Below are positions 484 to 62,400 of a stretch of 64,000 bases of DNA, piece after piece. A program made the position numbers and the translations under genes. Positions within the stretch are counted from its first letter, which is position 1. Each line of letters starts with the position of its first letter. The notes beneath the pieces were generated by a model. That model was not told where the DNA came from. It saw only the letters and a program-made list of their open reading frames with translations, and did no database searches. The stretch lies in the NCBI GenBank assembly GCA_002269645.1, contig NIVC01002089.1, positions 1-64,000 on the forward strand, in the 5' to 3' direction. Source of the stretch: Macrostomum lignano (taxonomy: Eukaryota).

Positions 484-1251
484 TGTACTAGTGTTATGCC
501 TTTATCATAGTATACTCGAATGTTCTTTCAATGTAATAACTGTATATTCGAATCTTTCTTAGAAACTGAATCTACGCGAACGCCAAATAATAGTTTGTTT
601 TAATGCGCGAAATAAATTGGAGAATTATTTTTTTGTTTTAATCGTATGTGGGGAAAATCACTATATATAGGAGCGGTTTTGCGACAAATATACTCTAACT
701 GTCTTTTACTCGTGAGCAAATAATTGCGAACAGAATAAGCAGTTCAATCTAAACCATTTCAAAGTCTTTGAGCTAAATAGCGACTTATTTATTTGCAAAA
801 CCTGTGAAACGATTCTAAGAAATTTGCTAAGAGAAGGGAATTGGGACTAATTCTTGGAGATATACCAAGAGAGGCGCCGTGACCCTCTAGTCTCGGTGAA
901 CGCCCGATTAGGACTATACACTAATACATATACCAGTACTAGACCGCTCAGGCCATAAGCTACTAGAACGCTACCAGAAAGCAAGCCATAAGCTACCAGA
1001 AACGCTACTAAGAACGCTACCAGAAACGCTACTAAGAACGCTACCCAGAAATATTTAAATGAAATTCTAAGAAATAGTTAGGGAGTAAAAGCAAGTATAA
1101 TCAGGATAACTGTAGTTGGCAAATCGGTGGGATTAAAATTGATAAAGTAAGAGGTGAAAGGCCTGTAACAACTTTGGTGGCAGCTCGTAGGATATTTAAT
1201 AAACACTAATAGTTAGAAGTTTAGAAAGACAGAGCCAAAAGGCCTGTCACA
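484..1251 (+). repeat. 5' LTR (768 bp)
   Basis: Matches 8413-9183 except about 3 substitutions and 3 small indels by eye; TATA-like CTATATATAG near 660; AATAAA at 1198-1203; internal GCTACCAGAA/GCTACTAAGAAC repeats at ~955-1050. Confidence 0.95.
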
Positions 1252-1253
1252 GC

Positions 1254-1264
1254 TGGTGGCAGCG
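1254..1264 (+). promoter_or_regulatory. Primer binding site, tRNA-Leu (AAG/TAG type)
   Basis: TGGTGGCAGCG, 2 nt after the LTR end; complementary to the ...CGCTGCCA-CCA 3' end of metazoan tRNA-Leu(AAG/TAG), recalled from known tRNA sequences. Confidence 0.85.
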
Positions 1265-1352
1265 ATAAGGATTAGAGAAACGGCGCGAACTCTTAAAACT
1301 AGATTCAGAAGAATTCCGAAGAATAATTTGAAAAGTTTTTCGTAGAGAGAAG

Positions 1353-2357
1353 ATGAATCAGAATCAGGCTAATGACGCCATCGCCATGCTGGCAGAAGAA
1401 TTGCGAAACCGACTAGAGATAGGGCCGATGAGACACGTTAAGATTCAGAAATTCACACCTACGCAAGACATTCGGATCTGGCTAACAGCCTTCGATCAGC
1501 GCTGTGAAGTAGAAGGGATAGATGAGGAACATAGGAAGCAGGAATTGCTAGCTAATCTGGACCTGTCCACTGCATTCGCAGCGGTACAGCGCCTAAATCT
1601 GCCCGAGGATCTTGAATACGAAGAGTTCAAAGAGCGACTGATTGAGCGATTCGGAAGAATCGGTAGTTCCGCAGAATTCAGAGAGGAGTTTCGTGGAAGA
1701 ATGCAAGGCAGAAATGAGCCTGTAGAGACTTTCGCAGACTGTTTGATCGAGCTGGCATCGCGTGCATTTCCGAATATGACGGTTGAGCAAAGGGAAGAAG
1801 AAATTGTTGAGCAATTCATCAAGGGAATCAGAATTCCGTCAGAGACCCGTGAGAAGCTAATCTTTGCGCAGCCAGGCAATTTACAAGAGGCTAGAAGAAT
1901 GCTAAGAAGGATGGAGGCTGCGTGGAACATGTCTCACAAGAATGTCAACATGAGAATGGCCAAAGGCGAAGGCGAGAGTGAGCAGAAGGCAGATCAGGAG
2001 AAGCTTGAGGACATCATCAAGAAGCAGAGAGCAGAGTTAGAGCAACAGAAGAAGGCGATTGAGGAGCTGATGGAAGAGAAGAGAGCTAGCCGTCAGCAGT
2101 ATCATCCGCAGAATCAATATCAAACGTACGCTCAGGTCGCTGGACCGCCGCAGCAGCCGAGATATCGGCCGCAGCAGCAGCAGCAGCAGCAGCCAGTATG
2201 GCGCGGTCAGCCTCAGTTCAACAGGCAGCCACAGCAACAGCAGCAGCCTCGAGCCTGCTACAATTGCGGGAAGCTTGGCCACATGGCGAGGAATTGCCAG
2301 AGCGCTAGGCCAAACGGTCAGCGAGTGATGAACTACCAGAAGCAGCAGGGAAACTGA
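1353..2357 (+). CDS. gag: Gag (334 aa) with CCHC zinc knuckle
   Basis: Intact ORF after the PBS; CYNCGKLGHMARNC knuckle; retrotransposon gag-like helical N-terminus. Confidence 0.93.
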   Translation: MNQNQANDAIAMLAEELRNRLEIGPMRHVKIQKFTPTQDIRIWLTAFDQRCEVEGIDEEHRKQELLANLDLSTAFAAVQRLNLPEDLEYEEFKERLIERFGRIGSSAEFREEFRGRMQGRNEPVETFADCLIELASRAFPNMTVEQREEEIVEQFIKGIRIPSETREKLIFAQPGNLQEARRMLRRMEAAWNMSHKNVNMRMAKGEGESEQKADQEKLEDIIKKQRAELEQQKKAIEELMEEKRASRQQYHPQNQYQTYAQVAGPPQQPRYRPQQQQQQQPVWRGQPQFNRQPQQQQQPRACYNCGKLGHMARNCQSARPNGQRVMNYQKQQGN

Positions 2358-2392
2358 GTAGCGAGGGCCGCTTTGCGAGGCCACGTCCCTCT
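2348..2392 (+). promoter_or_regulatory. -1 ribosomal frameshift signal (G GGA AAC + hairpin)
   Basis: Slippery heptamer GGGAAAC (2348-2354) in gag phase, directly before the gag TGA; followed by a GC-rich stem (GAGGG...CCCTC enclosing GGCC-GC-TTT-GC-GA-GGCC); the -1 frame stays open for about 110 codons. Confidence 0.8.
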
Positions 2393-5300
2393 AGCAACAA
2401 TTATCGCGAATTTCAGGCCTCTGAATTTGTAAATAATGCGTATCGAAGTAATGCCAGACAGTATAGTAACAGCAGAACGCATGCCGAATTCAATAAATTT
2501 CACAGAAAACCAAATAAAAATTTTGCACCTCGTGTACATACGCCGCTTGCACCTAGTCATGCGTCTGCCAGCCACAGTAGGCCGAATAATAAAGTACAAA
2601 GTACAGTAATTCCGAATGAGCATTCGAAGAAGAATTCGAAGAAGATACGGAGAGAAAAGGACGAGAAGCAGTCGTCAATGGAATGCTAAGAAACCGAAAG
2701 GTCTACTTCCTGCTAGACACAGGAGCTGGACATAATTTCCTAAGCAAGAGTACTTGGAAAAAGATGTTCAGAAGTGATGAAATTGAGTTGACTACTAGAA
2801 GAGTGACTACGTTTGACGGATCAAGTGTGCGAATTGAAGGAGAAGTCAGAACGAAAATACGATTCGGAGAGATAGAGATTGAGACAGAGTTCCTGCTGTG
2901 CAATCACGAGTGTGACGACATACTCGGGATGGAGTTCTTCATGAACTTCTGCGACAGCATCAGCCTTTCCAGAGGAATGCTTGTATTAAAAGAAGGACCT
3001 GCATCCCAATTCAGTTTACAAAATTACCCGTACGGGTTTGCCGAATCTACAGCCATAACAGCGTGACTATACCAGCGAATAGCGCTCTTCGAATTCCAAT
3101 TAGAATGACTAAAGGATCAGAAGCTAACTATGGAACGCCAATGGTCATTGACACCATTGGAGGCCAAGTGACTACGAAGAAAATTCCTTAGAGATGATTC
3201 CTACTCTAGTGACCATGAACGATGGAACAGGAGTAGTGGAAATAATCAATCGACAGAATGACGATATCAGACTGACAAGATCTACGCTGATTGGAGTGGC
3301 CAAACCCTTGAAGCCAGGAGGCCTGGCCTACTCTATTAACAGCAAAGGTCAAGCCAGTTCAGATGATGCAATTAGGACAGTGAAGAGTGAAGAGAGTGAG
3401 TACAGCTGGATAAACGAGATCGATTTAGGAGAAGAGCTAACATCAGAACAGAAAGGACTAGTGATCGATTTGCTAAAGAAGAACAAGGAAGCATTTTCGC
3501 AGACCAACCAAGACATGGGTCTCACCCATCTTGTGACTCATGAAATATCTCTAAAAGATACCACACCGGTCAGGATTCCAACACGCAGAATTCCACCACA
3601 TCTGCAAAAGCAAGTAGATGAGCAACTTGACGACATGCTTGCTAAGAACCTGATCCGACCGTGCTATAGTACTTATTCGACGCCGCTAGTGATAGTTCCT
3701 AAGAAGGATGGATCCATAAGAATCGTCAGTGACTTCAGGGTCCTGAACTCGAGAGTGAACTATTACCCATATCCATTGCCGAACATACAAGAGACTTTCG
3801 CTCAGTTATCTGGAAGCAAGTACTTCAGTAGTCTAGATTTAAACTCTGGATACTGGCAGGTACCTATCAAAGAGAGCACAAATTTATGACAGCCTTTTCC
3901 ACCCTTACCAGAGGCCAGTTCGAATATCAGGTCATGGCACAGGGCTTGTCTAACGCTCCTGGTACATTCCAGAGACTCATGAATTTGGTGCTGATGGGAA
4001 TACAGCACAAATTCGCAATGTCGTACATAGATGATATTGTGACATACTCAGAGAAATTCGAAGATCATCTCGGTCATCTGCAAGAAGTATTTCAAAGACT
4101 AATCTCAGCAGGACTAAAATTAAGACCAAAAAAGTGCAACTTGTTTCAGAAAGAGCTAAAGTACTTAGGGCATATCGTAGGAAGAGAAGGGATTAGAACA
4201 GACCCAGCTAAGATCGAAGCGATACAGTCATGGCCTACGCCGAAAGAGGTCAAAGAACTGCGAAGCTTCTTGGGGTTGTGTAACTACTACTGCAGATTTG
4301 TAAAGAATTACGCAGAGGCAGCGCATCCGCTATTTCAATTAACTAAGAAAGGTATTCAAAACTTTAGGGAAAAGTGGACCAAGAAGCATGACGAGGCTTT
4401 CCAGCAGTTGAAGCAGAGAATGACATCGACCGAAGTACTCGCGTACCCAGAATTCTCAGAGAACGAAAATGTTCGAATGGTATTAGACACCGACGCAAGC
4501 GAAGACCGAATTGGTGCTTGCCTGGGTCAAATACAATCGGACGGGGTTGAAAGACCCATTGCTTACTTCAGCAGAGCAATGAAAGAGTCTGAGAAAAGAT
4601 ATCCGATTACCAGAAAAGAGCTATTAGCGCTAGTAGATGGCATGAAACACTTCCGATTTTACCTAATTGGCAAAAGGTTTCTGGCCCGCACAGACCACAA
4701 GGCAATTCTATGGTTACTGCGCCAGACCGAAGCCCAAGGAATTCTCGGAAGATGGATTGAAAGACTGAGTGAGTTTCAATACGATATTGAGCACCGCAGT
4801 GGAGCCAAACATTCCAACGCAGATGGATTGTCACGGCGACCCTCGGAACCACCAGTTGAACAGAAAGATGCTAAGATCAAAGAGAATGAGGCCGAAATTC
4901 CTAAGATGACAATAGAAACCAGCGCTGTGAAACAAGTCGTGACTAACAGCGTGAAAGATCAGAGTTGCCAGACCGACTTCACAGAAGAGTATGAATCAGA
5001 TTCCGAAGACGAATTCGCAGATGATGAATACGAGATGCCAGTGATCAGTTCGAAGATGATGATGACATCTATGAAGATGCAAGAGACTATTTCGAAGAGG
5101 AAGAGACAGTGTGCAGAAAGCTTCTGACAGATTACCTCTCGTTCCATTGAAGAAAGAGCAGCTGACTTCAGCGCAGCATGCTGATCCTTCTATAAGAACC
5201 TTGATGGACTGGAAGCAGAAGAAAGTGCGTGAGCCGAAGTTGCCAGAAAATGCATCCGGAGAGTTGAAGAAGATGGTTAAGTTCTACGAGCAGATGAAAA

Positions 5301-6844
5301 TCGAAGATGAAATGCTGACAGTCAGTGAAGACGGTAAACGAAAAGTAGTATTGCCAGAGAGGATTGAGAAAGATGTATTCAAAGAGCTGCATGACAGTCC
5401 GCTAGCAGGCCACCTAGGTCGGGACAAGACGCTACAGCGAGTCCGAGACCGATTCTGGAGGCCGGGGTTAGTGACTGCAGTTGAAAAGTACATCGCAGAA
5501 TGCATCCCGTGTCTGGAAAGTAAAAGCGGAAATAAAGTACGAGCACCGGTGCAGACCTTTCCGATATGTGAGCCATTCCATCGGCTGCACATAGATTTGA
5601 TCGGTCCAATATCAAAGGAAAGCAGAAGAGGACACCGATATGTACTTACTGTCGTAGATAGTACAACAAAGTTCCCATTCGCTTTTCCGGTTCGGAATCA
5701 GAAATCCGCGACTGTTATCAAAACGATACAAGAGAGAATTTTCAGCGAGTATGGCCAGTGTCAATGGATACACACTGATAATGGCAAGACTTTTGTAAGT
5801 CACCAATTTCAGGCATTCTGTACCCTATACGGCATTAAGCATACTTGCACTACGCCTTACCATGCTCAGAGTAACGGGCTTGTCGAAAGATTTAACAAGC
5901 AAATTAAATCGATTGTAACCTGTTTGATTGAAAAGGATCATTCAGATTGGGATCTGCTCATACCCGCCGCTTTGGTAGCTGTGCGAACCAGTGTTAATCA
6001 AACTACTGGGTTCACACCACACTACTTACTATTCGGGAGAGAAGCAGATTTGCCAATAGATAGCATTGTGAAAAGGCCAAGACTATACCGAGACTATCCT
6101 AGCTATGTGCTGGATCATGCGAAGAGAATCGAGGAGACAAAAGCAATTGTGCAAAGACAACTCGAAAAGGTGCGAGAGAAAAGGCAAGAGGACGAAGTTG
6201 AGAATCGTCAGCCTAAAAATGTGCCAGTTGGCTGTCTCGCTCTCATCAACAACCCTCAACTTCACCAAGAGGAGAGCCACAAATTTCATCGAAAGAAAAG
6301 AGCAGCCTATCGAGTTCTTGCGAAGATATCTGATACAGTTTTCCGTGTGCAAAGAGAAATCAATGGCGAAAGGAGCGGAGAAAAACTATTAGTACATAGA
6401 AATAATCTGACTCCAGTGCCGAAATCCGAAATTAATTTACCAGAGGAAATTAATAATAATTTAAAACCAGCACCAGTGCCAACTAAGAAGAAAGAACAGC
6501 CGAAGCCGAAGAAAAGAATTTGCCATAGACAAAAAGAAGTTAGAATTCCAGAAGTTCAAATTTTAGAGGAGGAAAGCTCAGACGAAGAAAACAGAATTCA
6601 ATGGAGAGTATTCGCAGATCCGAATTCGCAGAGTGAAAACGAAGGAAATGAAGAATTGAACAGTGAGAATACAGAGAGAGCGACTGACTCAGATGAGCCA
6701 TCAGAAGAAGAAGAAGGAGCATTAGAGTTAGAGGAGGAACGAGTTCAGCCAGAGAATAGGTATAACTTTAGGATGACTCAGCGAAGGAGAGAAAGAGAAG
6801 GCGCGACAGGATTTGTGCCCGAAGGCGCTACGCGAAATATTTAG
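2354..6844 (+). pseudogene. pol: Pol (protease-RT-RNase H-integrase), broken by about 5 frameshifts
   Basis: PR FLLDTGA (2683-3066); RT SLDLNSGYWQ / YIDDI (3194-3889, 3886-); RNase H LDTDAS, RTDHKAI, NADGLSR; integrase HHCC plus HIDLIG/HTDNG/NGLVER (5111-6844). Frame breaks near 2620-2690, ~3000, ~3170, ~3885 and ~5115. Confidence 0.92.
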
Positions 6845-7160
6845 CACCTTAAATCATGACGTAAGCAATTTCCCATAAGAAACAGTGTTAAATAGTTAAA
6901 ATTCCGTATTAGAATTACTTATCTGCTTATAAAATTTGACATGCTGTACATAGAGCGAATCTGTAAATACCATATTAATCTACAAAATGCGATCTTTAAT
7001 TTGATACTTTACCAAGAAAATCTATCAAAAAATAAAAAAGTTATAAAAAGAAATAGAAAATCCATAAAAATTTAGTTGTCAAATCTGTCAAATCTGGCAT
7101 GCCCCGCCCCACGCGCGAGGGGAGTGCTTCGAAGAGGTCCAGTTTTTCGGCCCGCCAGCC

Positions 7161-7168
7161 TATAAATA
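7161..7168 (+). promoter_or_regulatory. Putative internal TATA box for ORF3
   Basis: TATAAATA in GC-rich context, about 90 nt upstream of the ORF3 ATG, which has an invertebrate-type CAAAATG context. Confidence 0.5.
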
Positions 7169-7251
7169 CGAGCACCCTGCAGGCCCCACAGATCCCATAG
7201 CTCACTGCTAGCTTCCTTTCTATTCTAAGAGCCATTCGCAGAGAAATCAAA

Positions 7252-7932
7252 ATGAACAACTCTATTGACATCTTGGACGAGTTAATTGGCAATCTGTCAG
7301 ACGATATGGAGCCCCAGCCAGCGCCCAACACCGACGAAAATGAGGCACCGCTTCGATGTGCAACACGTCCAAAGGCGCCTGGTGTATCCAGCAAACGGCC
7401 AAGAACATCATCGCCAGCTTCATCGCCTTGCCGCCAAATGAGGGTCGAAGGCCCCGAGCAGAAGCGCGCCGCCCTGGTGGCAGCACAGGCAGCTGCGCCC
7501 GTGCGCTCCTATGTTGTCAAGGCCACGCCAGGATCGTCGACATCAAGCCGAACGCAGCAGTTGGTGTCACCGCCAGCTGCCCCATCATCGAGAAAGACCC
7601 CGGCACCACGGCAGAAGAAATCGACAGCTGCGACACCGCCAGCTCAGCAGCCAGCGTCGCAGCCGAGCCTGCAATCAGCGCAGCAGTCAGCGCTGCAGCC
7701 GAGCCTGCAATCAGCGCAGCAGTCTAGCCAGCCATCAGCACTACAGCCGAGCCAGCAGCAATCGAATTCGCAGAGAGATTTTCATCGCATCGTCCGAGAA
7801 CTTGTGGAGACTCGCGGAGCAGAGGTGGAAAAGCTACGCTTCCACATTGAGCAATACGCACTGAAAGTAGCGTACCACCGATCCGACAGCCGACAGCGCT
7901 ACCCCAATGCTCGCAAATTTGGACACACCTGA
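7252..7932 (+). CDS. Accessory ORF3 of the Gypsy element (226 aa, unknown function, not env-like)
   Basis: Intact ORF between integrase and PPT; acidic N-terminus, P/Q/S/A-rich middle with a short internal duplication, predicted helical C-terminus; no signal peptide or TM segment visible. Confidence 0.6.
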   Translation: MNNSIDILDELIGNLSDDMEPQPAPNTDENEAPLRCATRPKAPGVSSKRPRTSSPASSPCRQMRVEGPEQKRAALVAAQAAAPVRSYVVKATPGSSTSSRTQQLVSPPAAPSSRKTPAPRQKKSTAATPPAQQPASQPSLQSAQQSALQPSLQSAQQSSQPSALQPSQQQSNSQRDFHRIVRELVETRGAEVEKLRFHIEQYALKVAYHRSDSRQRYPNARKFGHT

Positions 7933-8412
7933 AGTTTCTAAGGGATCAATTCAGTTACCAGGAAGCTGTCGCTGTTCTCCAGGACGTCGCCTATCGCCTC
8001 CAGCGAGCTATAAGAGCCAACCCGCCGCCAGCGCTGACGGTCCTCGACGAAGAGTACCGATGGTTTTTCGCTCAAGTCGGCTGGCCCTACTATCGCGACC
8101 TCCCGGAGCCCTGCATGTTTATCTGAACTATTGAGGTGAACTAACTTTTGCGTTGCCTTTAATAACAATTTTGCCTTTTATAATACTTTCATAATAGTTC
8201 GTTTTGCTTCCATAATAGTTCTCACTTTAATGGTTTACCTACATAATAGTTCTATCACAACCATTTTATGCACCAATTGTTTTAGCACTGAATTGTGTTT
8301 TCTGCACCTTGCTTTGCACCTTTTCACCTGCATTTTCCTACGATATCAATTTTTCACTGTATACATATAATATAGTATTTCGTTCAAAATTTGATATATA
8401 GAGGAGGAAAGT

Positions 8413-9183
8413 TGTACTAGTGTTATGCCTTTATCATAGTATACTCGAATGTTCTTTCAATGTAATAACTGTATATTCGAATCTTTCTTAGAAACTGAAT
8501 CTACGCGAACGCCAAATAATAGTTTGTTTTAATGCGCGAAATAAATTGGAGAATTATTTTTTGTTTTAATCGTATGTGGGGAAAATCACTATATATAGGA
8601 GCGGTTTTGCGACAAATATACTCTAACTGTCTTTTACTCGTGAGCAAATAATTGCGAACAGAATAAGCAGTTCAATCTAAACCATTTCAAAGTCTTTGAG
8701 CTAAATAGCGACTTATTTATTTGCAAAACCTGTGAAACGATTCTAAGAAATTTGCTAAGAGAAGGGAATTGGGACTAATTCTTGGAGATATACCAAGAGA
8801 GGCGCCGTGACCCTCTAGTCTCGGTGAACGCCCGATTAGGACTATACACTAATACATATACCAGTACTAGACCGCTCAGGCCATAAGCTACTAGAACGCT
8901 ACCAGAAAGCAAGCCATAAGCTACCAGAAACGCTACTAAGAACGCTACCAGAAACGCTACTAAGAACGCTACCCAGAAATATTTAAATGAAGTTCTAAGA
9001 AATAGTTAGGGAGTAAAAGCAAGTATAATCAGGATAACTGTAGTTGGCAAATCGGTGGGATTAAAATTGATAAAGTAAGAGGTGAAAGGCCTGTAACAAC
9101 TTTGGTAGCAGCTCGTAGGATATTTAATAAACACTAATAATAGTTAGAAGTTTAGAAAGACAGAGCCAAAAAGACCTGTCACA
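8413..9183 (+). repeat. 3' LTR (771 bp)
   Basis: Preceded by purine tract AGAGGAGGAAAG; ends CCTGTCACA, followed by TSD TTTA. Confidence 0.95.
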
Positions 9184-9895
9184 TTTATAGTATAATAAAA
9201 GTTTTTTAATTCTTGGCATGGCCTAACCTGCTAACCATTAGTCTAGGCTTATGTTGTTATCAATTTTTTATTCAGCTTTAGTTTAATTAATAAGGCCAAG
9301 AAATCAAAATAATTGTCTATTAGACTAGGCCTATTAAATTTAAATAGTTTTTGGCTTTAAATCAAAATTAGAAGTTTGGAAATTGGATATTGATAAATGG
9401 TTCAAAGTAAAATAATAAAAGCAAAATACAACTTGAATACCTTATATTTTGAGGCTCTATTCTCTATTCAATAAAAAATTATAACCTTATTATTTGCTCT
9501 AGGCCTATTTGCTTTAATCCATATTTTCAAAGATCATTTAAGTAGTCTACTGAGCCTTAGGAGCCACCAAAGTAGTCTGCTTAGAATCAAAGGCTATCAC
9601 TCATTAGCTAGCTAGAGCAATCTACTAAGCCTTAGAAGCCATTAAAATAATCTATTAAGCTCCAAGTCCATTGATATTATTAGTGCAACATATCATTTTC
9701 ATAGATATTCCAATATATTTTTCAAGTGCTATGCCTAGTGATTCAACAAATGTGAACATGTTAAATGCCTACTTAAATCTGCATGTTCAATGCCTGCTTT
9801 ATAAAGTTTTTGGGTCATTTTAAAGCATAGGCTTTTATACACGATATATAGTATACTGTATAATACACTTATACACTATATATTTATACACTATA

Positions 9896-10784
9896 TGTAA
9901 CAGGGGTTTGCTTCCCTCTTTAGCTATCCCACTGCTGGTACCAAATTGTAACAGTGGTTATTGTTCTCTCTATTTAAATCTCTACTGCTGACACCAAAGT
10001 TGTTACAAGGCTAACTTCCTACACTAATCTTTAATTGTTCTTGTTAAGTTGGTAGCTGCCACCAGGATTATTCCATTAATAAATTATGAGTTTATCAATC
10101 TTAGAATAATCCGATAAATGTTTCTTAGAATAGGTCTGAGTATTTAGTCTGAGTATTTGGTCTGAGTATTTATTCTGAGTATTTAGTCTGAGTATTATTC
10201 TTAGAAAACTGTTAGCCCTGAAAGATTTTACTCCTCTGTTATTCTGGTAGCGTTTCTGTTATTCTGGTAGCGTTCTACTTAATAATTAGGCCTAAGTGGT
10301 ATTTTGGCTTACTGGTATATGTATTTCATGTACTTTGCAAGTCCTTGGGCATTACCGAGATCAGAGGGTCACAGCCTCTGGTTATCTTACACGTATCACT
10401 TCAGATCTACTTTGTATTCTCTTACTACTCAATACTACTGCTTCTCAATAGTATGTACTATATACGCTTCAGTCAATTTCACTCTTACTTCGTAAAAGGA
10501 ATTAACACAGAAAACACTTCTTCAATTCTTATTTTCTCGGAACTCTTACTATTCGCTATCAATTACTTATTGCAGAACCGCGATGCACGAGGTTGGTCTC
10601 TCCTCCACTGAAATTGCTTCTATTTATACTAAAATTTGCTACAGTTTTAAACAAAAATTCGTTAGCGCAAAATATTATAGAAAATACAAGTATTAAAACA
10701 AAATATGTTTCTTAGTTTTTGGCGTGAATTCAAATTGACTAAATGGTGACTATTTTATAAAGAAATCGGGAGGGGCCCTGCACA
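9896..10784 (-). mobile_element. Solo LTR of a related Gypsy family (889 bp)
   Basis: On the minus strand begins TGTGCA and ends CCTGTTACA; flanked by TATA/TATA (9892-9895, 10785-10788); shares AGAACGCTACCAGAA repeats and the TGTAACAACTTTGGTG motif with the LTRs above. The TATA TSD lies in TA-rich sequence, so it is weak evidence alone. Confidence 0.8.
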
Positions 10785-11343
10785 TATACACTATGTACTA
10801 TATACACTATATACTATACACTATATATTTATACACTATATATTGCCTTGCTCATGTTTGTCTAAATGAAAAGCTTGCTTGTCTTTTTGATTTAAGACTT
10901 GCCACGCAATGCAAAATGCTTTCTGACAAGCCACACAATCACATTGAAAAAGCTCAAGGTGTCACTTCTCCAAGAAGTTTGGAGTCCTGTAGTCTATTCT
11001 CAACTGACTCTAGAATAGTTTCAGAGAGGCAAAGTCTAGCACATTTGTTATCAAACTTTGCTTTTGATAAAAACAAGAGAAAAATATGCAAAAAGTAGAA
11101 AAGAGGAGAAACTTGCATTTAGTGATCAAAAAGAAATAAATTGAAATATTTTAGGTCAGAGAGAGAATAAATTTTAATTGCATGTGAAGCAGAGCTATGT
11201 TGCACTAGCCAGGTAAAAATCAGGTTGCACATACGGTAGTGTGTCAAATAGTTCACACATTATGTCTGATGTTTGTAGTTCCTCACACATTAATGCAGTT
11301 TGTAAATTTTTCAGTTAGTGCAAGCCACTTCAATTAGTCAGCC

Positions 11344-17506: not shown

Positions 17507-18758
17507 TTTGGTTGGGGAGAAAGTTCCCGCGGTTTCTAGAACTTTCTGTCAAACTGAGTTTTTTTAAACAAAAAGCCAATTAAGAAATAAAATAATCACC
17601 ATCACAATCAATCACCTTCTGCCATTTTTCGGGCAGACTCATAATACCGTCACTGTAAAATTTCTCTGGCTTTGAAGTGAAAAAGTTGTTCAGCCAGTTA
17701 TCGAGCTCTTCATCATCAGCGAAGGTTTTGTTGTTCAAGGCGTTGGCCAGAGACAAAAACAGGTGATAGTCGCTTGGTGCCAAGTCTGGTGAATACGGTG
17801 GATGGGGCACCAATTCCCAGCCAAGGTCCAGTAGCTTTTGGCGAGTCACCCTAGCAGTGTGTGGACGAGCGTTATCATGGAGGAATCGTACCGGGCCATG
17901 GTTCGGACGCTTCTGTGCGATGGCGGCGGCCAATCGGTCCAGCTGTTGGCAGTATAGGTCGGCCGTAATCGATGTGTTGGGTGGCAGCAGTTCGTAGTAG
18001 ATGACGCCCTTGCAGTCCCACCACACGCACAGCATGACCTTGCGTGGGTGGAGTCCGGCCTTTGGCTGCAGCTCAGGCGTCGCGTCAGCATCAACCCATA
18101 ATCGTCGACGTTTGATGTTGACGTACAGGCACCACTTTTCATCGCACATAACGATGGACTTCAGCCAGTTGTGCGTGCGCCTGTAGGAGAGGAGAGAAGT
18201 GGCCACCTCTGCCCTGCGCTCCTTGTCCCAATCTGACAATTGGTGGGGTACCCATTGTGCCAGCTTGTACACCTTGCCCAGCTGATGCAAATGACTGGTG
18301 ACCGTTTTATGGTCTACATCAAGGACTTGCGCTAACTCACGCGTGGTTTGCCGAGGGTCAGCCTCTACGAGTGTGCGCAGCCGGTCGTCATCAACCTCGG
18401 AGGGACGACCTGACCGGGGCAAATCTTCGAGGTTAAAATTTCCCTGGCGAAACCGCGCAAACCAGTCCTGGGCAGTGCGTTCAGACACGGTACCCGCACC
18501 AAATGCAGCGTTGATGCGACGGCTGGATTCTGCAGCTGACAGTCCAGATTTGAAGTCGTAGAGCAGGAGACCACGAATATAGGCCGAGAGAGATCCATAA
18601 TGCTGGTGACTAGTGAGTAATCTCTTTGGTTTAAATAGCATGTTAGAATCACACACACCCACCCTCAATATATACCCACACAGCCGGGCTCTGGAATGTT
18701 CCAGAAAGTTCTTAGACAGAAAGTTCTAGAAACTGCGGGAACTTTCTCCCCAACCGAA
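17507..18758 (-). mobile_element. Mariner (Tc1/mariner DD34D) transposon, complete
   Basis: 44-bp TIRs TT(T/C)GGTTGGGGAGAAAGTTCCCGC(G/A)GTTTCTAGAACTTTCTGTC with 2 mismatches; TA TSD at 17505-17506 and 18759-18760. Confidence 0.97.
17580..18641 (-). CDS. Mariner transposase (about 353 aa from the first ATG), intact
   Basis: N-terminal HTH; CDEKW, WVPHQL, HDNARPH and HPPYSPDLAPSDYHLF motifs; D-34-D spacing counted by hand. Confidence 0.96.
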   Translation of the reverse strand: MLFKPKRLLTSHQHYGSLSAYIRGLLLYDFKSGLSAAESSRRINAAFGAGTVSERTAQDWFARFRQGNFNLEDLPRSGRPSEVDDDRLRTLVEADPRQTTRELAQVLDVDHKTVTSHLHQLGKVYKLAQWVPHQLSDWDKERRAEVATSLLSYRRTHNWLKSIVMCDEKWCLYVNIKRRRLWVDADATPELQPKAGLHPRKVMLCVWWDCKGVIYYELLPPNTSITADLYCQQLDRLAAAIAQKRPNHGPVRFLHDNARPHTARVTRQKLLDLGWELVPHPPYSPDLAPSDYHLFLSLANALNNKTFADDEELDNWLNNFFTSKPEKFYSDGIMSLPEKWQKVIDCDGDYFIS

Positions 18759-25255: not shown

Positions 25256-27019
25256 ACTAACTTGGTCATTGCCAGCTCAGTCCCAGTGTTGCCAGCCGCC
25301 CTGTCAGCCATGTTGTGTCGGTATGTACAAACGAACACTAAAGATGACATTATTCGCCTTTTCCTGTGCACGATGGGCAACTTAAGCAGAATTAAACAAT
25401 ATGAATATTATTTATTTGAGATTCCCTCCTGTTCCCGCGGTTCGTTTGTCATGGAAAAATAATTCGGTTATTATAATATGATAATGATGACGATTGGACT
25501 GTGCGCTCGTTTTTAAGAATCCTGTTTTAGTTTTAATGTATAGTGTAGTTTCTTATTTATCATCTATATAACAATAATTAACTATCAAATATGCTTTCTT
25601 TGACGTTAAAATAATTCACCGTCACTCTCGAAATCAAATAGTTACGAAGCCTATTATAATAAACAAAAACTATAAAATTTAATAATTTTGTCAGCCGTTT
25701 AAAATAAATTTACCTGTCGATCATTCTACGAGCAAATTAAATTTCATTAATTTTTATTGCCAGTTTTTCTTGCTTAATGCTGCTTCTACTACTACTGCTG
25801 GGTAGCTTAGTAGTGACAGTAGCTTATGATGCAGGGAAGCTAGGCCATACCAGGCATTACTCGTAAATTCAAGTCAAAATTCTCCACAGATACTAAAATA
25901 ACTAGATGGGCCACTTAGGCACATATACTTAGTAAAACAGCTCTCTACTTTCAGTTCAGTAGCAAAGAAGAATACATAAGCTATTTTATAAAATAAAGGC
26001 AGCTGAAATGACTGATAAGTTAAGAAGCCCAAGCTTGCAGGCGTAAACAACTTGCTAATTGGTTCAGCAATAATGTACATTGGCCAGTCCACTGATATGT
26101 ACATGGCAGCTTTAGGCTTGGAATTCCGGGAAAAGGCAATAAAAATTGGGGCGGGGTTGGGGGGTAGAGTGGAAAGGCGCAGTTGGAGGGTTCAGGCTGG
26201 GGGGGGGGGTAAGCAAGGATGATATATAACAACTTGTTAATACATCATCCTTGGGGTAGGAGCCAGTAATTGTGCCTTGGATTTAAAATACGTTAAAAAT
26301 GCTTCTGTTTAACATGCTACTGAACTGAAAGTAGCCTACACGCAAATGTGCTGAATAAAGTCAATTTTGACGTAAAAATTGGTTACAAGTTAGGAGTTCA
26401 AATTCTTTAAATAAAGCTTTGCGGCTTATCTGAGAGTTAAGGCCAGTTTTTCTTATCTATAAGACTTATTGCAACGCGCAGTTATATGTACTATCTATGC
26501 GTGCGTTTATTTTTTCTCATTCGAACACTCTTATGAAATGCGCATTAAAAAAGGTTGAAACAGTACTTTAATTAAAGGCAAAACAGCCGAAAATAATCCA
26601 AAACCAAGCGATGCCGACTGAGGACGGTAAAAGTGCAAACACCGGAATGGACGGACTGACGAGTCCTTGGCTTGAGGATTTTGGCGCTGTGAGTAGTTTA
26701 CCTCGTACGATTGCATGCTTTGCTGTGTAGACTGCGCTTCAGTCATTTTGAGCAGCATTGCATCAGGATGTGTGAGACTATCTGTTAAATCTTAATTGTA
26801 GATAGGGTAATTGAGAACAAAGGTAATTGAGTACATCACGTTTTTTGAAACCATTAATTCTTGCAATTGCCATTCATTGAGATGTGATTACATGTGCATG
26901 TACTCAGACTGTCTCAGAAACCTGTGCACTAGCAAATTTTAATTAAGAATCGATTATATTGGCCTTGAAAATCTTCGATTAAAGTGCAAAAACTATTCTG
27001 AGCACAATAGTGTTTCGCC

Positions 27020-28900
27020 AAAAACCCGAGATGATTAGCCATCAGAAAATTCTTCGCTACGGATTTTCCCTGGAAGTGGCGATGCCTGGCAAACAGCCAT
27101 GACCCGAAAGGGCCATGGTCACCGCCCTGATGTCCCTGCGGTTGAGTCCAAGCAGGGCCCTGTGGAGGGTGGGGGAAGGACATGGGACAGCCGCGCGGGA
27201 TTGCTGGCAGTCTGGGGCGTAAGACCACCTTTCCTTGTGGTTTGAGCCACCCACTGGTTGATCCGAGTAGTGACAACGGCGGTGGGGGTGGGGGCCACAG
27301 GCAGGGACCAGTAAAAGAACCGGTCGGGCCATCCTTGGCCAGGCAATCGGCCAACTCATTGCCTGGGTGGCCCGAGTGCCCGGGGATCCACCTTAGGGAC
27401 ACCTTGTTAGAGGCGTCTAAGCGGTTGAGCTGCCCGATTGCAGTCAAGGACTGTACGCGAGCAGGTGGTGGTGCGCTCAAGGGCGTGGATCGCCGTTTCA
27501 CTGTCCGAGTGGAGGGTAATTTCCTTCCCCCAGACGCGCTGATTGTACAGCTCCATGGCACAGGAGCAGATGGCGAGAACTTCGTTCTGGAAGACGGTGG
27601 AGTAGGTGCCGGTGTGCTGGGAGAAGGTCGCCACAGTTCTCCCTCCAGACACGATGCAGCAGCCGTAGCCAGAGGCGGAGTTGATTTGGGACCCGTCAGT
27701 GAAGCAGTGGATTTCATGGGATTTCCAGTTGTCCCTTGCTTCATGACGTGGTGGAATGCTGGTTTTGAATTTGAGCGGAGAGCAGAGCGTGGACGGGATT
27801 CCGTCCGAGAGGGTCAGCAGGCCTCCTGCTGCTTCCAGGTCTCGCAGGCTGAGGTCGCCGTGCGGCCGGAGGTTCCGCTTTCTGAAGGCGAACTGCTTCT
27901 GGATAACGACCCCGCGTCAAGCAGACGGCGGGTGGTCTTCATTGCCTCCCCTCTGACAGAGGTCAAGGGGAAATGTCCAGGAAGGAGTTCATGCCAGCAA
28001 AAAGCGTAGAGGGAGCCGCGCTCGTGATCAGTGCCGAAGCATATATGGCTGAGTCCACCTCCGACGGGTAATTACGAGCTAAAATTGAAATAATTCATTC
28101 ATTTGTACATGTAGCTGGCGCATCGAATAATTTTTAGTTTAATTAGCAATGCACACTTGCTCAAAGCTCGACAAGCGCGGCCTTGCACCCTGTTAAGAGC
28201 TTCAAGAACCCCTTTCACCCCAAGGGCACTGTTCCAGATGAAGCCGACGAAGATGGCCGGTCTAACAATGGCAGTGTAAATCCACCAGAGGCTGCGGGGG
28301 GTGAGGCCCCAGGTGGCGCCGAAAGCTCTGCGGGTCTGCGCGATAGTAGCGAGAGCTTTGCGGGCTTTGGTTTGGACGTGTGGGGTCCAGCTCAACCTGT
28401 GGTCGAGAGTGAGGCCCAGACATCTGGTTTGTTTCTCCATGGCAACGGGTTTGCCATAGAGGGAGAGCGGTTCGATCCTCCAGTTTCGGCGGCAGGTGAA
28501 CACGATAGCGACGGTTTTAGACTTAGAGAACCTGAGACCGCAGCCGTGTGCCCAGCGCTCGGCACGGTAAATGAAGGCTTGGAGGAGGTCTCTGAGAAAC
28601 GTGGGTGATGGTCAAGCCACAGTGGCGGTAACATCGTCCACGTAACCGACCTGAACCGGATCCGGATACGGGCTGCAGAGCAGCTCGTCCATGATCGACC
28701 AAGTTCCAGAGAATCGGCGTGAGGACTATACCTTTCGGTCCGCCTTTCTGGCCCTCCACAGGGCGGGAGTGTCCCAGGAGGTGCGAGGTGGCAGTACAAT
28801 GGGAGACCATGTACATGATCCAGCAGGTGAGATGCTCGTTGAAAGCACCATCAATGTTGAGGAAAAGCAAGAGCGCGTATCCCCTTCCAAACAAAAACAT
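27020..28900 (-). mobile_element. Degenerate RNase H-encoding LINE (I superfamily, Loa/Lian/R1-like), 5'-truncated
   Basis: Minus-strand fragments: LFLNIDGAFN, LTPILWNLV, YVDD, RCLGLTLDHRLSW...WGL...YTAIVRP; RNase [37 protein letters not shown]; many frameshifts. Confidence 0.88.
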
Positions 28901-45879: not shown

Positions 45880-48735
45880 CAACAATGCGTAAAGATGAGT
45901 CAATAGGGCCAGGTGCCAACGGTGTCGCCGTCAACTTGACGGAGCGGCAAACAAAGATGGCGACCTACAGAGGACGGCGGCCGAGTGTGCATGGCTCCGA
46001 AACGCCGAGCACACGCTTTAATGCCCAGCGCAATGCACTGCGCACCATGCTGCCCGCCGGCTCCACCAGGACTCGCGGCCTGCCCAGCCGGAGCCTGCTA
46101 GAGGATTGGACACATTATCCTTGCCAGTCCCCCGCACTGCACCAGCTAGCAGAACAATCGAGACAACCAAAGAAAGTCAAAACCAGTTTGATAACTGCAC
46201 AAGACTTGCTACCTTCAACGCACGAACGCTCACTGCCCCCTGGAGACTGCACGAGCTAACCAAGCTGGCAAAGAGCATGAACATCTCCATTCTGGCTGTC
46301 CAACAACACCGCAGGAGCACCGAAGAGTGCGCTGATCCAGGCCTTGGCTGCAGCAGTTCCGAGCCGCCCCAGCCTCAGCCCAGGGTTCTGGAGGCTTCGG
46401 GTTTCTGCTGTCACCTGGTGCCTCAAGGGCCCTTCTGAATGTGAGCTTCCCAACCGACCGCCTTGGCATTGCCTCTTTTGGCACGAAGGACTTCATGTAA
46501 TCTGCGTCTACGCCCCCACAGCCCCACGCACAGCTACTGATCTTACCGAGACTGAGTCAATGTATGACCACCTGGGATCACTCATCGACTCGGTTCCTGA
46601 TCGCGACCAGCTTTTTGTGGCTGGAGACTTCAACGCGCCACTGTCCCCTGATTGCCGCCTGGTAAAGAACAACTGCGGCTCCACCAACACTAACTCGGAC
46701 TTCCTGTCAACTTTCATTCACTCTCAAGACCTGATTGCAGCCAATGGTGTCATGCGGCAGCGGTACAACAAGCTGCCCACCTTCTTCGGCCCAAATGGAC
46801 GGACCACGCCATCAGATCTCGACTGCGCAAAGTGGTCAATATCCGCCCCAGCTGCGTGAGGTCCGACCATTCTCTGCTGGCCTGCGACATCAACTGCCGA
46901 TGGAAAAAGTACAAGGCTGGCCCACCGCACCTCCTCTGGGCAGATCTGAGAAACCCAGACACGCGCAGTGCGTTCACTGAAAAGCTGTAAAATGCTCTCC
47001 GGCCCTGAATGAATCGGCGGACACCTTCACCAGAGCTATTGAGGAAGCTGTCTCGATCCTACCAAAACGAAAACCGCACCAACCAAAAGCCCTCTGGGAC
47101 TCCGACGAGGAGATCTCCATCGCTAGGCGCGACGTGCAAAGAACAACCGCAGTCTTTGGCCAAGACAGTGAGCAGGCTGAAACAGCCCGGGCCCAACTAC
47201 GCGACACGCATGCCCGGAGGACCGAAGCCTTTGTCCAGGAGACTGTTGCTGAAATTCAACTAGCAACAGACAACTGCCGGCACACAGCGGCCTGGCGCGC
47301 CATCAACCGCCTGACTGGCAGGAAGCAGAGGGCCAATGCCGCTGTAGGTGCTGAGTCCATACACCATCGCAAAGCCCTGCTGGCCACTCACTACCACAAT
47401 GTGCTCAACGCTCCACCACCCTCTGCTGATTTGCTGCCGATCGAAAACTTTACCCCGGCTGAGCCCTCGACTTTCAACTCCGGCCCGCTGACTGCCTACG
47501 AGGTGAACCGAGTGCTCAAGACCATGAGCCCCGCCGCTGCCGCCGGAGTAAATGGCATTCCACCCAGGATGCTCAAGCTGCCGGAGCTGACACAGGACAT
47601 CACGACTTTGCTCAACAAGCACTGTCCGCTTGGAGGCAACCCAGATGCTACTGCTGCTGACAACTGGCGCACCTCTAAGATCGTCTCCATCCCCAAGAAG
47701 GGCGCATCCACCAGTCTGGACAACCAACGCGGCATCGCTCTGGAATGCACTCTGGCTAAGCTGCTCAATGCTATACTGCGTAATCGGCTGCTGCCTGGCC
47801 ACAACCAAATGATCCTGAGCCTCCAAAGTGGCTTCAGGCCCGGCCGCTCGACAACAGAGCAGATTGCAGCCCTTCGAGCAGTCGTCGAGGCCGGTAAAAC
47901 TCACCAACGAGCTGTGTCAATTGTTTTTGCGGACTTCCGCAAAGCTTTTGACTCAGTGTGCCGGCGCGCGATCGCGTGGCTGCTCGAGCACTATGGCGTC
48001 CCCCCGGCTCTTATCTCTACAGTGATGGACCTCTACAACAACAGCAAAGCCTTTGTCCAAACCAGCGATGGCCCAACTGAGGACTTCTGCACCAGCTCCG
48101 GAGTCCTCCAAGTCCAAGGTGACACGTTGGCCCCACTGCTCTTTATCCTTGTCGTCGACTACGTGCTGCGCCGAAGCCTCACAGAGGAGGACAGTTACCT
48201 GCTGGCGTCACGTCGGAGCTCCCGCCGCGGTGCTGCCCCGTTGCCGCCCTCGCGTACGCCGACGACATCGCCCTGCTGTGCCGCAGTCCGACTGCCGCCC
48301 AGAGAGCGCTCTCAAGACTCTATGAGGAGAGCGCCCGAGTCGGATTGCAAATCAACGCACGCAAGACGGAGGTGCTGCACGTGGGCACCGATGCAGCACC
48401 AATCCTAACCCTTCCAGATGGGCAAGTCATTTCAGTCTGCAGAGACTTCCGGTACCTGGGCTCCCTCGTGAGGAGCCCTGACTCCATCATCGCTGACCGA
48501 AGGTCACAGGCCTGGCGCGCGGCTCATCTCCTCAGGGAGGTCTTCAGCTCAGCTGCCAACGACGACCTGAAGAAGCCACCCTCCAGCGGCGCCGGCTAAT
48601 GCTCGTCGGCCACTGCCTCCGCAGCTACGGCAGAGGGGCGCTCACCTTGCTGCATCAGCCAACCGAGCGTCTCCGACGGGGCCAAGGCCGGGCCGCCACG
48701 CTAGAGTCTGACCTACAAGCCATTAACCTGACCCC
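45880..48735 (+). mobile_element. RTE-like LINE (APE endonuclease-RT), frameshifted; boundaries approximate
   Basis: EN: RLATFNARTL, ISILAVQ, VICVYAPT, FVAGDFNAPL; RT (47134-48408): IVSIPKKG, QSGFRPGRSTTEQI, FADFRKAFDSV, QGDTLAPLLF, then YADD after a frameshift. No TSD found. Confidence 0.88.
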
Positions 48736-59421: not shown

Positions 59422-62400
59422 ATGCAAGTTATGCTACTGATGCTGGCCGGACTAGCAGTAGTAGTATCGATGGCAGCAGTGCTAGAAGGCTACGATGGAT
59501 TGGATCGCAAGAAACGGCAAACGCCCAGTCGATTGGTCATCGGTAACCTGCTTCTATTTATAGCTTCATTGAAATATCCCCACGTACAGTGTATATTCTA
59601 TTATTAACTCATAGGAAATAGCATTCTTGGGGGAACCTGTGAGGATCCCCTAATGCTACTTATAGTATTTTTGGAATTCCCTCTGCCTACTGTCTTGAAT
59701 CTCTATATCTTGATTCTAACTATAGCTTCCAGAGAATTCCCTCCGCATTTTTGCCTTTACGCTATTTATAGCTCTTGCGGTAACTCACGGGTGGGAATCC
59801 CTGCAAAACCCAACACGCTATTTATAGATTCAAAGAATTCCCCATGAGTGTTGGTTCTAAATATAGCTTTCTTCTTCTTCTTCCAATCGGGCGCGCTCGG
59901 GCCAGGGCCCATGGTACCGAGCGTCAGATGGCGTCCGCCTTCCCGAGGATGTTCAACACCGCGGTGCAGTTCTCGAAAGCTGTCGCGGGCTCCGGGCTTG
60001 GCCCCCAGAGGCGGCAGCGGTGTGATGTCAGGGCGGGGCAGGAGATCAGCAGATGGGCCGCCGTCTCCTCTCCATCGCCACAGAAGCGGCAGGTGGGGCC
60101 ACGTCAACGCCGATGGCGGCCTGGAAGCCCCGCAGGGCCGGGCAGCGGTCGGCGCGCAGCTGGCAAATTCGCGTGAGGTCGCTCGTCGGCGGAGGCGGCA
60201 GGCGGCCCGCCGTGCAGGCAAGGTGCCAGGCCAGCGAGCTCGTGCTCGCCGCCTCGGTGGCCGCCGCGTGGTAGGTCTGGTGCCAGCGGGCGAGGCAGTG
60301 GCGGCGGACGGCAGCCTGCGCAGCAGCCAACGGGACGAGCGCGGCGCCTTGCACCAGCGTGGAGCCTCGCTTGGCGACCTCGTCGAAGGCCTCGTTGCCG
60401 GGGATTCCCGCGTGGCCAGGCACCCACTGCAGGTGGACCGAGGTTCGGCGAGGCTGGTCCAGGTCAGCTTAGGGAGGTGTCGTCGGGACAGCGTGGACGG
60501 GCTGTCGTCCAGGCCCGCAGTGCTGCAGACGCTGGCCGCCGTCTCGCGCCAGCCGCGGGCGCTTTGGAGGCGGCGGCGCGGGCCGACGCTGGCCGCACAG
60601 GCGCGCAGCGGGTTGTCGGGCGGCAGCCTGAGGGCGCGCTCGTGGAGGAGGCCAGCGTGCATCTCCGCACGGACTGCCATCAGCGGCAGCCCAGCCTCGC
60701 GCTCCAGTACCTCCAACCTGGTGTTCCGCGGACACCCGGTGATGATGGCGCTGGGCCCGGTCCAGGTGGTCGATAGCCGTCCTGCAGACCGTCGGCATCC
60801 AAGCGCCGGCAGCGTACTCCAGCACCGGCCGCACGTAGGCCGTGTAGAGCTGGCGCACGTCGCTCTGCTTGGCGCCCCAGTTGCTGCCAGACAGCGCCGC
60901 CAGAACGCCGCAGCGGGCGCAGGCGCGGCCGGCGACGTTGGCAGCGTGCGCCGAGAAGCTGAGCAGCCGGTCCAGGACGACGCCGAGGAAGCGCGGCTGG
61001 CGGTCCGTCGAGAGCGGGGCGTCGTTCTCCGGCGGTGGTGGCGAACAGGGAAGCGGCGCACTTTTTCCATCCGCCACTCGCTCGCCCAGTCGGAGACCGC
61101 GTCGATCGCAGCCTGCGCCTTCGTCTCGGCCTTCTCCACGGTCAGGCCTTGCACTGCGATGGCCAGGTCGTCGGCGTAGAGGAACGGCGTGCAGTCGGAC
61201 GGCAGGTGGTCAGGCAGGTCGTTGATGTACAGCGCAAAAAGCAGAGGGGCAAGGACACTCCCCTGTGGCAGGCCCTCGCGGAAGAGCCGCCAGCTGCTCA
61301 GCGCGCCGTCCACCCTGACGGCAGCACGGCGATCGGCCAGGAAGCTGCTGAGCCAGCGGACGCCGGCCGCTGGGATGCCGGCGTTGTGCAGCTTGTGCAG
61401 CAGGCCCTGCTTCCAGACGATGTCGTACGCCCGCCGGAAGTTGAGCAGGACGACGACCGTCTGCCTGGCAGGGGCCGCCTGGTGGCCGTCGCTGATGAGC
61501 TGGGTGAGCCGGGCAATCTGGTCCTCGGTGCTGCGCCGCTTGCGGAAGCCGGCTTGGGCGGGGTGCAGCAGGTGCCGGGACTCGGCCCACCAGTAGAGCC
61601 GCGCTTGAACCAGACGCTCGGCCAGCTTGGCCAGGGTGGAGGTCAGGGCAATCGGCCGGTATGAGCCGATCTCGTCGGCCGGCTTGCCCTTCTTGAGGAT
61701 TGGCACGACGTGGGCACGGCGCCACGCCGCGGGGACCTCCCCCTGGGTCCAGGATGCATTGATCAGCTGCAGGACCGCCCCGTGGCCGGCAGCGCCGAGG
61801 TGCTGCATGTGTTCGGCGCAGATCTCATCGGGTCCTGGGGCCCTCCTGGCCGGGAGGGAGCCGAGAGCCCTGTCCAGCTCGCGGTGCGAGAACGGCTTTC
61901 TAAAGTCTCTGCTCCCATGGCTGTCAGCGCCGGCTCGCAAAGCGCTGCTGTGAAAGTTCTCGCGGCGGAGGTCTCGCGTCCTGCGGTCTTGCGGGAGGCG
62001 GCTGACGGCGGCATACTCACGGGCGTAGGCCTCGGCGATGTCCTTCAACTGGACGAGCGTCTTCTGGCCGTGTGTTGGGTCTCTTGCAGACACGCCACGT
62101 CGACGCGCAGGTCCAGCAGCAGCCTGCACAGGTCGGGCATCTTAAAGGCGACGCCCCCTGCGTCGTTGCAGTTGCAGGAGGTGCAGGCCACTGGGCGTTG
62201 GCCGTTGAGGCTCGGCGGGCTGGTTCAGGCGTCGGCTAGGCATTTTATCGGCGGGGTGGTTCAGGCGTCGGCTAGGCATTTTATCGGCGGGCTGGTTCAG
62301 GCGTCGGCTAGGCATTTTATCGGCGGGGTGGCCGCCAGATGCCGATTGGGCGGCGAAGAGACTGCGTTGCGGCGCTGGGCATCGGGAAGGGCCCTTTTCT

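Follow-up and report, generated by a model that had tools for sequence, protein, structure and literature searches.

Ty3/Gypsy retrotransposons encode gag (with a CCHC motif), protease (PR), reverse transcriptase (RT), RNase H (RH) and integrase (IN) in that order, and they are bounded by TG...CA long terminal repeats (LTRs), with a tRNA primer-binding site (PBS), a polypurine tract (PPT) and a target-site duplication (TSD). In textbook reverse transcription, the priming site sets the LTR's 3′ end, and plus-strand strong-stop DNA carries at its end 18 nt copied from the primer and is transferred through pairing at the PBS. The Macrostomum lignano elements described here share this organization, but whereas a single LTR end and a single PBS are expected, they carry 1–10 spare units of LTR end plus PBS inside the LTR, and these are used. 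Retroviruses are known to have their PBS rewritten by the primer tRNA and to switch templates through the PBS. These are the same steps as those proposed below, although there they are known as the replacement of a single PBS and not as the growth of an inherited, exchangeable array within the LTR.

The closest analogue is the multiple PPT of Sireviruses, in which a priming signal for reverse transcription is likewise present in several copies at the LTR junction as a lineage trait (PMC2829016). Those tracts prime the plus strand and lie outside the LTR, whereas the sites in M. lignano are minus-strand primer sites, each of them comes with an end motif, and the ends are used; a full attachment site was found in 0 of 63 upstream PPTs (PMC2829016). 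The Drosophila Gypsy 5′ and 3′ PBSs and the bipartite PBS of Ty3 also provide more than one primer-tRNA site per element and are a possible model for one of the motifs below, c0, but the second site of Drosophila Gypsy pairs with a different region of the tRNA, the anticodon and T stems, is located near the 3′ end and lacks an LTR end (PMC1635307). A bipartite PBS uses different parts of one tRNA, whereas the PBS-like heads analysed here all match the acceptor 3′ end and are arranged in tandem. Finally, 3′ tRNA fragments (3′-tRFs) of 17–19 nt interfere with reverse transcription via the PBS, as shown for mouse elements (PMC12853362), and the internal heads would be candidate targets of such fragments. 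The "two PBSs" of PMC3212995 were considered as a precedent and discarded, as there the term refers to copies that differ in their tRNA.

Exact-word searches of open-access full text returned no description of such arrays; notes in Repbase or GyDB and subscription papers could hold one. In the main text of a survey of M. lignano, the terms "PBS", "primer binding", "tRNA" and "tandem" are all absent, and a 16-nt motif was not found in five of its supplements (PMC12801592).

A solo LTR with internal LTR-end/PBS junctions

The window analysed comprises 64,000 nucleotides of M. lignano (GCA_002269645.1, contig NIVC01002089.1, positions 1 to 64,000). On its minus strand, at 9896..10784, we found a lone LTR of 889 bp with TG...CA ends and no internal region, placed between two copies of the 4-bp TSD TATA (upstream copy 10785..10788, downstream copy 9892..9895). 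The LTRs of two full elements (L175 and L184) show 85–87% identity to this solo LTR over approximately 800 aligned nucleotides. A TATA-box-like motif at 10620..10628 on the same strand suggests a short U3 followed by a long R plus U5, and the array units may be located in R instead of U5.

Reading along the minus strand, the first relevant motif is c0 (10055..10064), which is complementary to 10 contiguous nucleotides of the 3′ end of the host tRNA-Leu-AAG/TAG and has no LTR-end (att) motif upstream. It is followed by the internal LTR-end motif 1 (10001..10010) and by two units. Unit 1 (9947..9996) consists of a PBS-like head (9996–9978), a spacer and LTR-end motif 2 (9956–9947), and unit 2 (9896..9943) of a second PBS-like head (9943–9926), a spacer and the terminal LTR end (9905–9896). 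All motifs that the earlier note had listed were verified at their positions, with att copies spaced 54 and 51 nt apart. The presence of two att+PBS junctions exceeds what is expected by chance, as two were obtained in 0 of 300 doublet shuffles and one in 12 of 300.

Both the unit and its end motif occur elsewhere in the genome. An identical copy of unit 1 is found in an LTR whose U3 cannot be aligned with the focal one (L003) and in a sibling solo LTR (L006). In the latter, the true LTR end, flanked by the TSD TAAG/TAAG, corresponds to the internal end motif 2 of the focal LTR. The spacer class of unit 2 is paired with three different heads among the arrays.

A second LTR family in the same window

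The proposal that a second, diverged LTR family with such junctions is present in the window was borne out. A sister family, hereafter family A, is represented at 484..9183 on the plus strand by a full-length Ty3/Gypsy element with the TSD TTTA, LTRs that are 99% alike and internal junctions at 1164–1175 and 9092–9103. Its 5′ LTR (484..1251) contains one internal junction (end motif 1164–1170, head from 1175), which is also present in the 3′ LTR (8413..9183, head from 9103), and the working PBS (1254..1272) shows an 11-nt match to Leu-AAG/TAG followed by an imperfect tail. The internal head and the working PBS are predicted to pair with Leu-AAG at −25.1 and −25.5 kcal/mol, respectively.

The assignment to Ty3/Gypsy is supported at several levels. 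In this copy gag-pol is split over six frame pieces, and Pfam searches of the window frames identified gag, PR, RT, RH and IN domains, with PR-RT-RH-IN behind gag; an element with a focal-type LTR (L164) is 71% alike over gag-pol. Across 44 full elements we found a TG...CA LTR pair, a PPT and a 4-bp TSD, and the complement of a host tRNA 3′ end lies just behind the 5′ LTR (Leu-AAG/TAG in 73 of 74 PBSs). The best named RT relatives are M. lignano proteins with 58% identity.

Family A also carries an accessory ORF in its 3′ internal region (7253..7932, plus strand). Counterparts of 279–409 aa are found in sister families (L172:1818–2690, L164:1478–2551, L205:7328–8164 and L203:1652–2662) with 35–47% identity across them, the C-terminal part being conserved. 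The ORF is preceded by its own TATA-like motif, is retained in internally deleted copies as well, and gave zero matches in Pfam and Atlas searches. The rest of the window contains a Tc1/mariner-type transposase frame (17580–18725, minus strand), two RT frames (46981–48408, plus strand, and 59766–62141, minus strand), an RNase H fragment (26929–27813, minus strand) and numerous minisatellites. The assembly holds a near-identical second copy of the region covered by the window (G000:C5211).

Arrays of exchangeable units across the genome

A two-junction pattern matched 64 times in the genome and 0 times in a reversed control. Related LTRs bear 1–10 units of approximately 50 nt, each made of a tRNA-Leu PBS head, a spacer and an LTR-end motif. 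Parsing of these loci yielded 116 distinct arrays with 212 distinct units (median 50 nt) and 66 spacer clusters, although head and array counts are phylogenetically non-independent. These data support the proposal that the units are former LTR-end/PBS junctions whose number varies in unit-sized steps, and the presence of arrays in several families of this genome, with similar ones in other hosts, supports a lineage trait.

Heads, spacers and end motifs occur in mixed combinations, and LTR bodies that cannot be aligned over their first 300 nt contain units that are 90–100% alike. The families sharing such near-identical units have Pol proteins that are about 71% identical. Contigs from four sequencing runs show additional head/spacer joins, to which we gave no weight. 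More distant families of the same genome (L261, L263 and L264) also have repeated PBS-like sites close to their LTR ends, where the end motifs differ.

Some growth of these arrays is chromosomal. Four duplicates of one solo-LTR insertion (L249–L252) contain 4, 4, 21 and 22 units of 40 nt, showing a PBS minisatellite that expanded by slippage after insertion. Together with L149/L258 and L166, in which identical units follow one another, this would fit a reading in which the arrays are ordinary LTR minisatellites, born from one duplication across the LTR end and then amplified by chromosomal slippage or unequal exchange, with no involvement of reverse transcription. As a general explanation we consider it highly improbable. 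It does not account for TSD-flanked ends at internal motifs, for the foreign units in both of the 100%-identical LTRs of L110 or for the perfect tRNA copy that replaces a degenerate junction head, and, barring misassembly of these copies, L110, L180 and L006 contradict it.

Internal ends are used, and units are gained or lost in young copies

In 18 of 24 solo candidates we found a perfect 4-bp TSD at ends corresponding to many unit types, the end parser being free to pick among a few candidate ends. The six misses comprise three 3′ LTRs of full elements, one parser split, and two that represent one insertion with three of four TSD bases matching.

Full elements show the same boundary in motion. 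The 5′ array was longer than the 3′ LTR in 4 of 44 TSD-verified full elements, a proportion that cannot be used as a rate given that the sampling patterns favour arrays. The four differences measure 52, 53, 55 and 103 nt and amount to one or two units, each ending at a unit boundary; the elements with these asymmetric arrays are L180, L172, L116+117 and L173. Elements lacking a TSD were left out of this count, including L169 (with +107 nt and a 3′ end off the end motif), L177, L183, L190–192, L201 (whose 3′ LTR is broken off) and tandem elements; the −75 nt of L178 lies outside the array. Tandem elements with a common middle LTR are represented by L118+119, L120+121 and L194/L195.

For one event in family A, all three states are preserved: most copies have the standard array, L180 (TSD CAGC/CAGC) has two additional units in the 5′ LTR only, and L110 (TSD TGCA, LTRs 100% alike) has them in both LTRs. 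In L110 and L180 the head of the first extra unit is a perfect 18-nt copy, whereas L170 and L199 have it in degenerate form. A search for the exact donor of the L110/L180 unit pair found none. A second series runs from L174, with short arrays in both LTRs, through L116+117 (long 5′, short 3′; TSD AATA) to L112 and L113, which are long in both.

The junctions caught in this way also bear on where their heads come from. Three of the four fresh junctions carry a perfect 18-nt Leu-AAG/TAG head, as compared with 6 of 212 units overall, and thus the primer was likely written in. The exception is L173, whose head is degenerate and was not overwritten. These perfect heads, along with the linked CAG heads described below, support the suggestion that the primer 3′ end is written into new junctions. 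Likely, the units gained or lost in young copies and shared between families reflect template jumps during reverse transcription. What is new here, by all appearances, is a Ty3/Gypsy lineage whose LTR boundary shifts in unit steps, with the intermediates preserved.

The arrays are probably a partial, scrambled record of mostly one primer

The earlier note had read the three focal motifs as three tRNA-Leu isoacceptors, each freezing the primer of an earlier cycle. To compare them with the tRNAs of this animal, we searched the genome with a T-loop pattern, which gave 36 matches, and ran ARAGORN on 30 of these loci. The host set, restricted to Leu genes, comprises four 3′-end types: AAG/TAG, CAG, CAA (with an intron) and TAA. 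An Rfam tRNA search of the genome, in which 63 candidates were scored, gave no usable Leu gene. Paired tRNA-like sequences without a variable arm, called as Leu-TAA and Ile-TAT (L037–L039), are probably a tRNA-derived repeat.

Against these ends, the assignment to three isoacceptors mostly did not hold, and the Leu-TAA end on which it had partly relied differs from that of this host. The c0 motif matches Leu-AAG/TAG. The head at 9996 shares 9 contiguous nucleotides with Leu-CAG/CAA and yet has the AAG-type C at position 10, with an edit distance of 3 to CAG and 4 to AAG. The head at 9943 matches AAG/TAG, CAG and TAA equally (15/18 each), with duplex energies of −22.8, −20.9 and −22.6 kcal/mol, respectively. 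A record of three primers in the focal motifs is thus not supported, since the heads are hybrid or tied.

Genome-wide, regular use of several primers was not borne out either. The 73 AAG/TAG-type heads among 74 working PBSs were counted in front of the leader of this group, so that the scope is the families with this leader, and the count includes some assembly duplicates. These PBSs are dimorphic: 22 of the 74 are perfect 18-mers, and most others show an 11-nt match and then an A-rich tail, with three families retaining different imperfect forms (L260 is among the sites seen). Such dimorphism is expected if the tRNA copy becomes fixed in part of the progeny. A genome-wide search for perfect CAG, CAA and TAA sites returned four matches, namely one exact CAG site and three hybrids, and no exact CAA or TAA site. 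The sole exact CAG 18-mer of the genome sits inside an array. The three hybrids (L160, L162 and L163) were rejected as isoacceptor copies, being chance hybrids outside arrays.

Leu-CAG has nonetheless left a trace. Among 90 matches without C10, A10-A11 occurs in five, all of which also have the CAG-type T6 and thus the full CAG signature, distributed over four loci and three spacer types. From this linkage, the Leu-CAG primer was likely copied into arrays a few times, whereas CAA and TAA lack such support: a CAA-type T6 was present in 0 of 12 rows with a CAA-type tail. At position 6, which distinguishes the host isoacceptors, the ratio of transversions to transitions is 19:18 versus 20:104 at the other G positions; this excess would fit partial copying of other isoacceptors, in heads that are related and pattern-selected.

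These results bear on a reading in which the array is an ordered, polarized record, with heads as faithful copies of different tRNA-Leu isoacceptors from successive cycles. The fresh junctions with perfect copies, the linked CAG-type heads and the position-6 excess favour it. So does the polarity that had been predicted, which stood in part: last units are nearer to the Leu PBS than first ones (mean 3.4 versus 4.4 edits, over 71 non-independent arrays). A fixed order did not stand, as 15 of 45 spacer-class pairs are found either way round, and we consider the order component largely refuted, the age gradient being weak. Units move between families, the duplicates of a single insertion differ several-fold in unit number, the working PBSs are nearly uniform, exact CAA and TAA sites are absent from the genome, and the focal heads are hybrid or tied. 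The position-6 test itself is based on related, pattern-selected heads. We thus regard this reading as very unlikely. With a primer that is nearly always Leu-AAG/TAG and rarely Leu-CAG, the array is a partial and scrambled record of mostly one primer, and it most likely represents a tolerated by-product and not a selected device.

A proposed route for unit gain and loss

Taken together, we favour, with a probability of roughly 75%, a reading in which the distal LTR is a stack of former LTR-end/primer-site junctions, where whole units are gained and lost and the heads act as strand-transfer landing or priming sites. Every PBS-like head could serve in either role. Plus-strand strong-stop DNA, ending in the 18-nt tRNA-Leu(AAG/TAG) copy, would pair with an internal head on a minus strand whose template was a co-packaged RNA bearing a different or longer array, and the resulting copy would gain units at the 5′ end alone. 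In the next cycle, primed at the outermost PBS, the extra units would appear in both LTRs. Conversely, priming or transfer at an inner head would give a shorter LTR. New units may arise from short tandem duplications over the end/PBS/leader junction and from crossovers within heads and ends, and heads would decay after capture. From sequence alone, internal priming and transfer between two RNAs are indistinguishable, as are gain and loss in the copies with a longer 5′ LTR.

An element from another host (L339, TSD ATTGA) illustrates the de novo birth of units. Its 3′ LTR carries an extension made of a PBS, approximately 19 nt of the leader and a repeat of the end, which provides a route to brand-new units, but its longer LTR is the 3′ one, opposite to the simple model.

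c0 and arrays in other hosts

A metagenome scan identified at least 112 stretches, of which 80 were fetched and grouped into 38 clusters; LTR status was established for L343/L339 only. Among the matches listed (L269–L348), an att-less single Leu-AAG site of 10–11 nt lies 42–73 nt before the PBS, usually following a C, in about 20 of 38 clusters, although the search pattern demanded a first, c0-like site and cluster proportions thus give no frequency of that site. End+PBS arrays were seen in 4 of the 38 clusters among the same matches (the L288 group, L282/L328, L275 and L322), whereas, by inspection, three others are ambiguous and about 11 are GC-rich repeat noise. Gypsy-type protein matches were obtained in 9 of 80 loci, with 29–45% in RT/RNase H, again among the matches listed. 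The two-site pattern had zero matches in viral contigs. We read c0 as a separate, older and widely shared feature and not as a captured junction; most likely, it is a putative second tRNA docking site.

The breadth of c0 could suggest that the whole array is a selected device, in which extra tRNA sites recruit the primer, bridge or dimerize RNAs, or act as a sink for 3′ tRNA fragments otherwise able to block the working PBS. The exact 10–11-mer in unrelated clusters from other hosts is in line with this, as is the fact that heads are still recognizable between families whose Pol proteins are 65–72% identical. In addition, the internal head of family A pairs with Leu-AAG much like the working PBS does, and an imperfect working PBS is kept in three families though a perfect tRNA copy recurs, which hints at selection on tRNA or tRF pairing. 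Against these points, internal heads are mostly degenerate (mean 3.4–4.4 edits), young copies vary between 1 and 10 units, a single internal unit is present in family A, which is abundant, and several subfamilies in this genome lack c0; the metagenome pattern required a c0 match, so that families without it went uncounted. We consider a selected device unlikely.

Discussion

A wider synthesis, which we put forward tentatively and regard as possible but doubtful, would be a selected multi-site tRNA platform in the LTRs of a tRNA-Leu(AAG)-primed Ty3/Gypsy branch present in several animal hosts. It would combine a conserved att-less second site with an array able to extend itself, to incorporate every primer used (mostly AAG, sometimes CAG, perhaps TAA) and to pass units from family to family; the working PBS would stay imperfect to escape 3′-tRFs. 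If this were true, co-packaging and primer use would be naturally recorded in the arrays.

Beyond that proposal, LTR ends and the PBS are regarded as landmarks that are single and fixed, an assumption on which annotation tools depend. Here, the boundary shifts in unit steps, with intermediates within one genome. The stack of former junctions that we favour would make these arrays a natural read-out of strand transfer, of co-packaging between families whose Pol differs by about 30%, and of primer choice in a living animal. Sequence and RNA data could be used to test the rate of priming by non-cognate isoacceptors, selection against a perfect PBS under tRF pressure, and the role of another acceptor-end site located upstream of the PBS.
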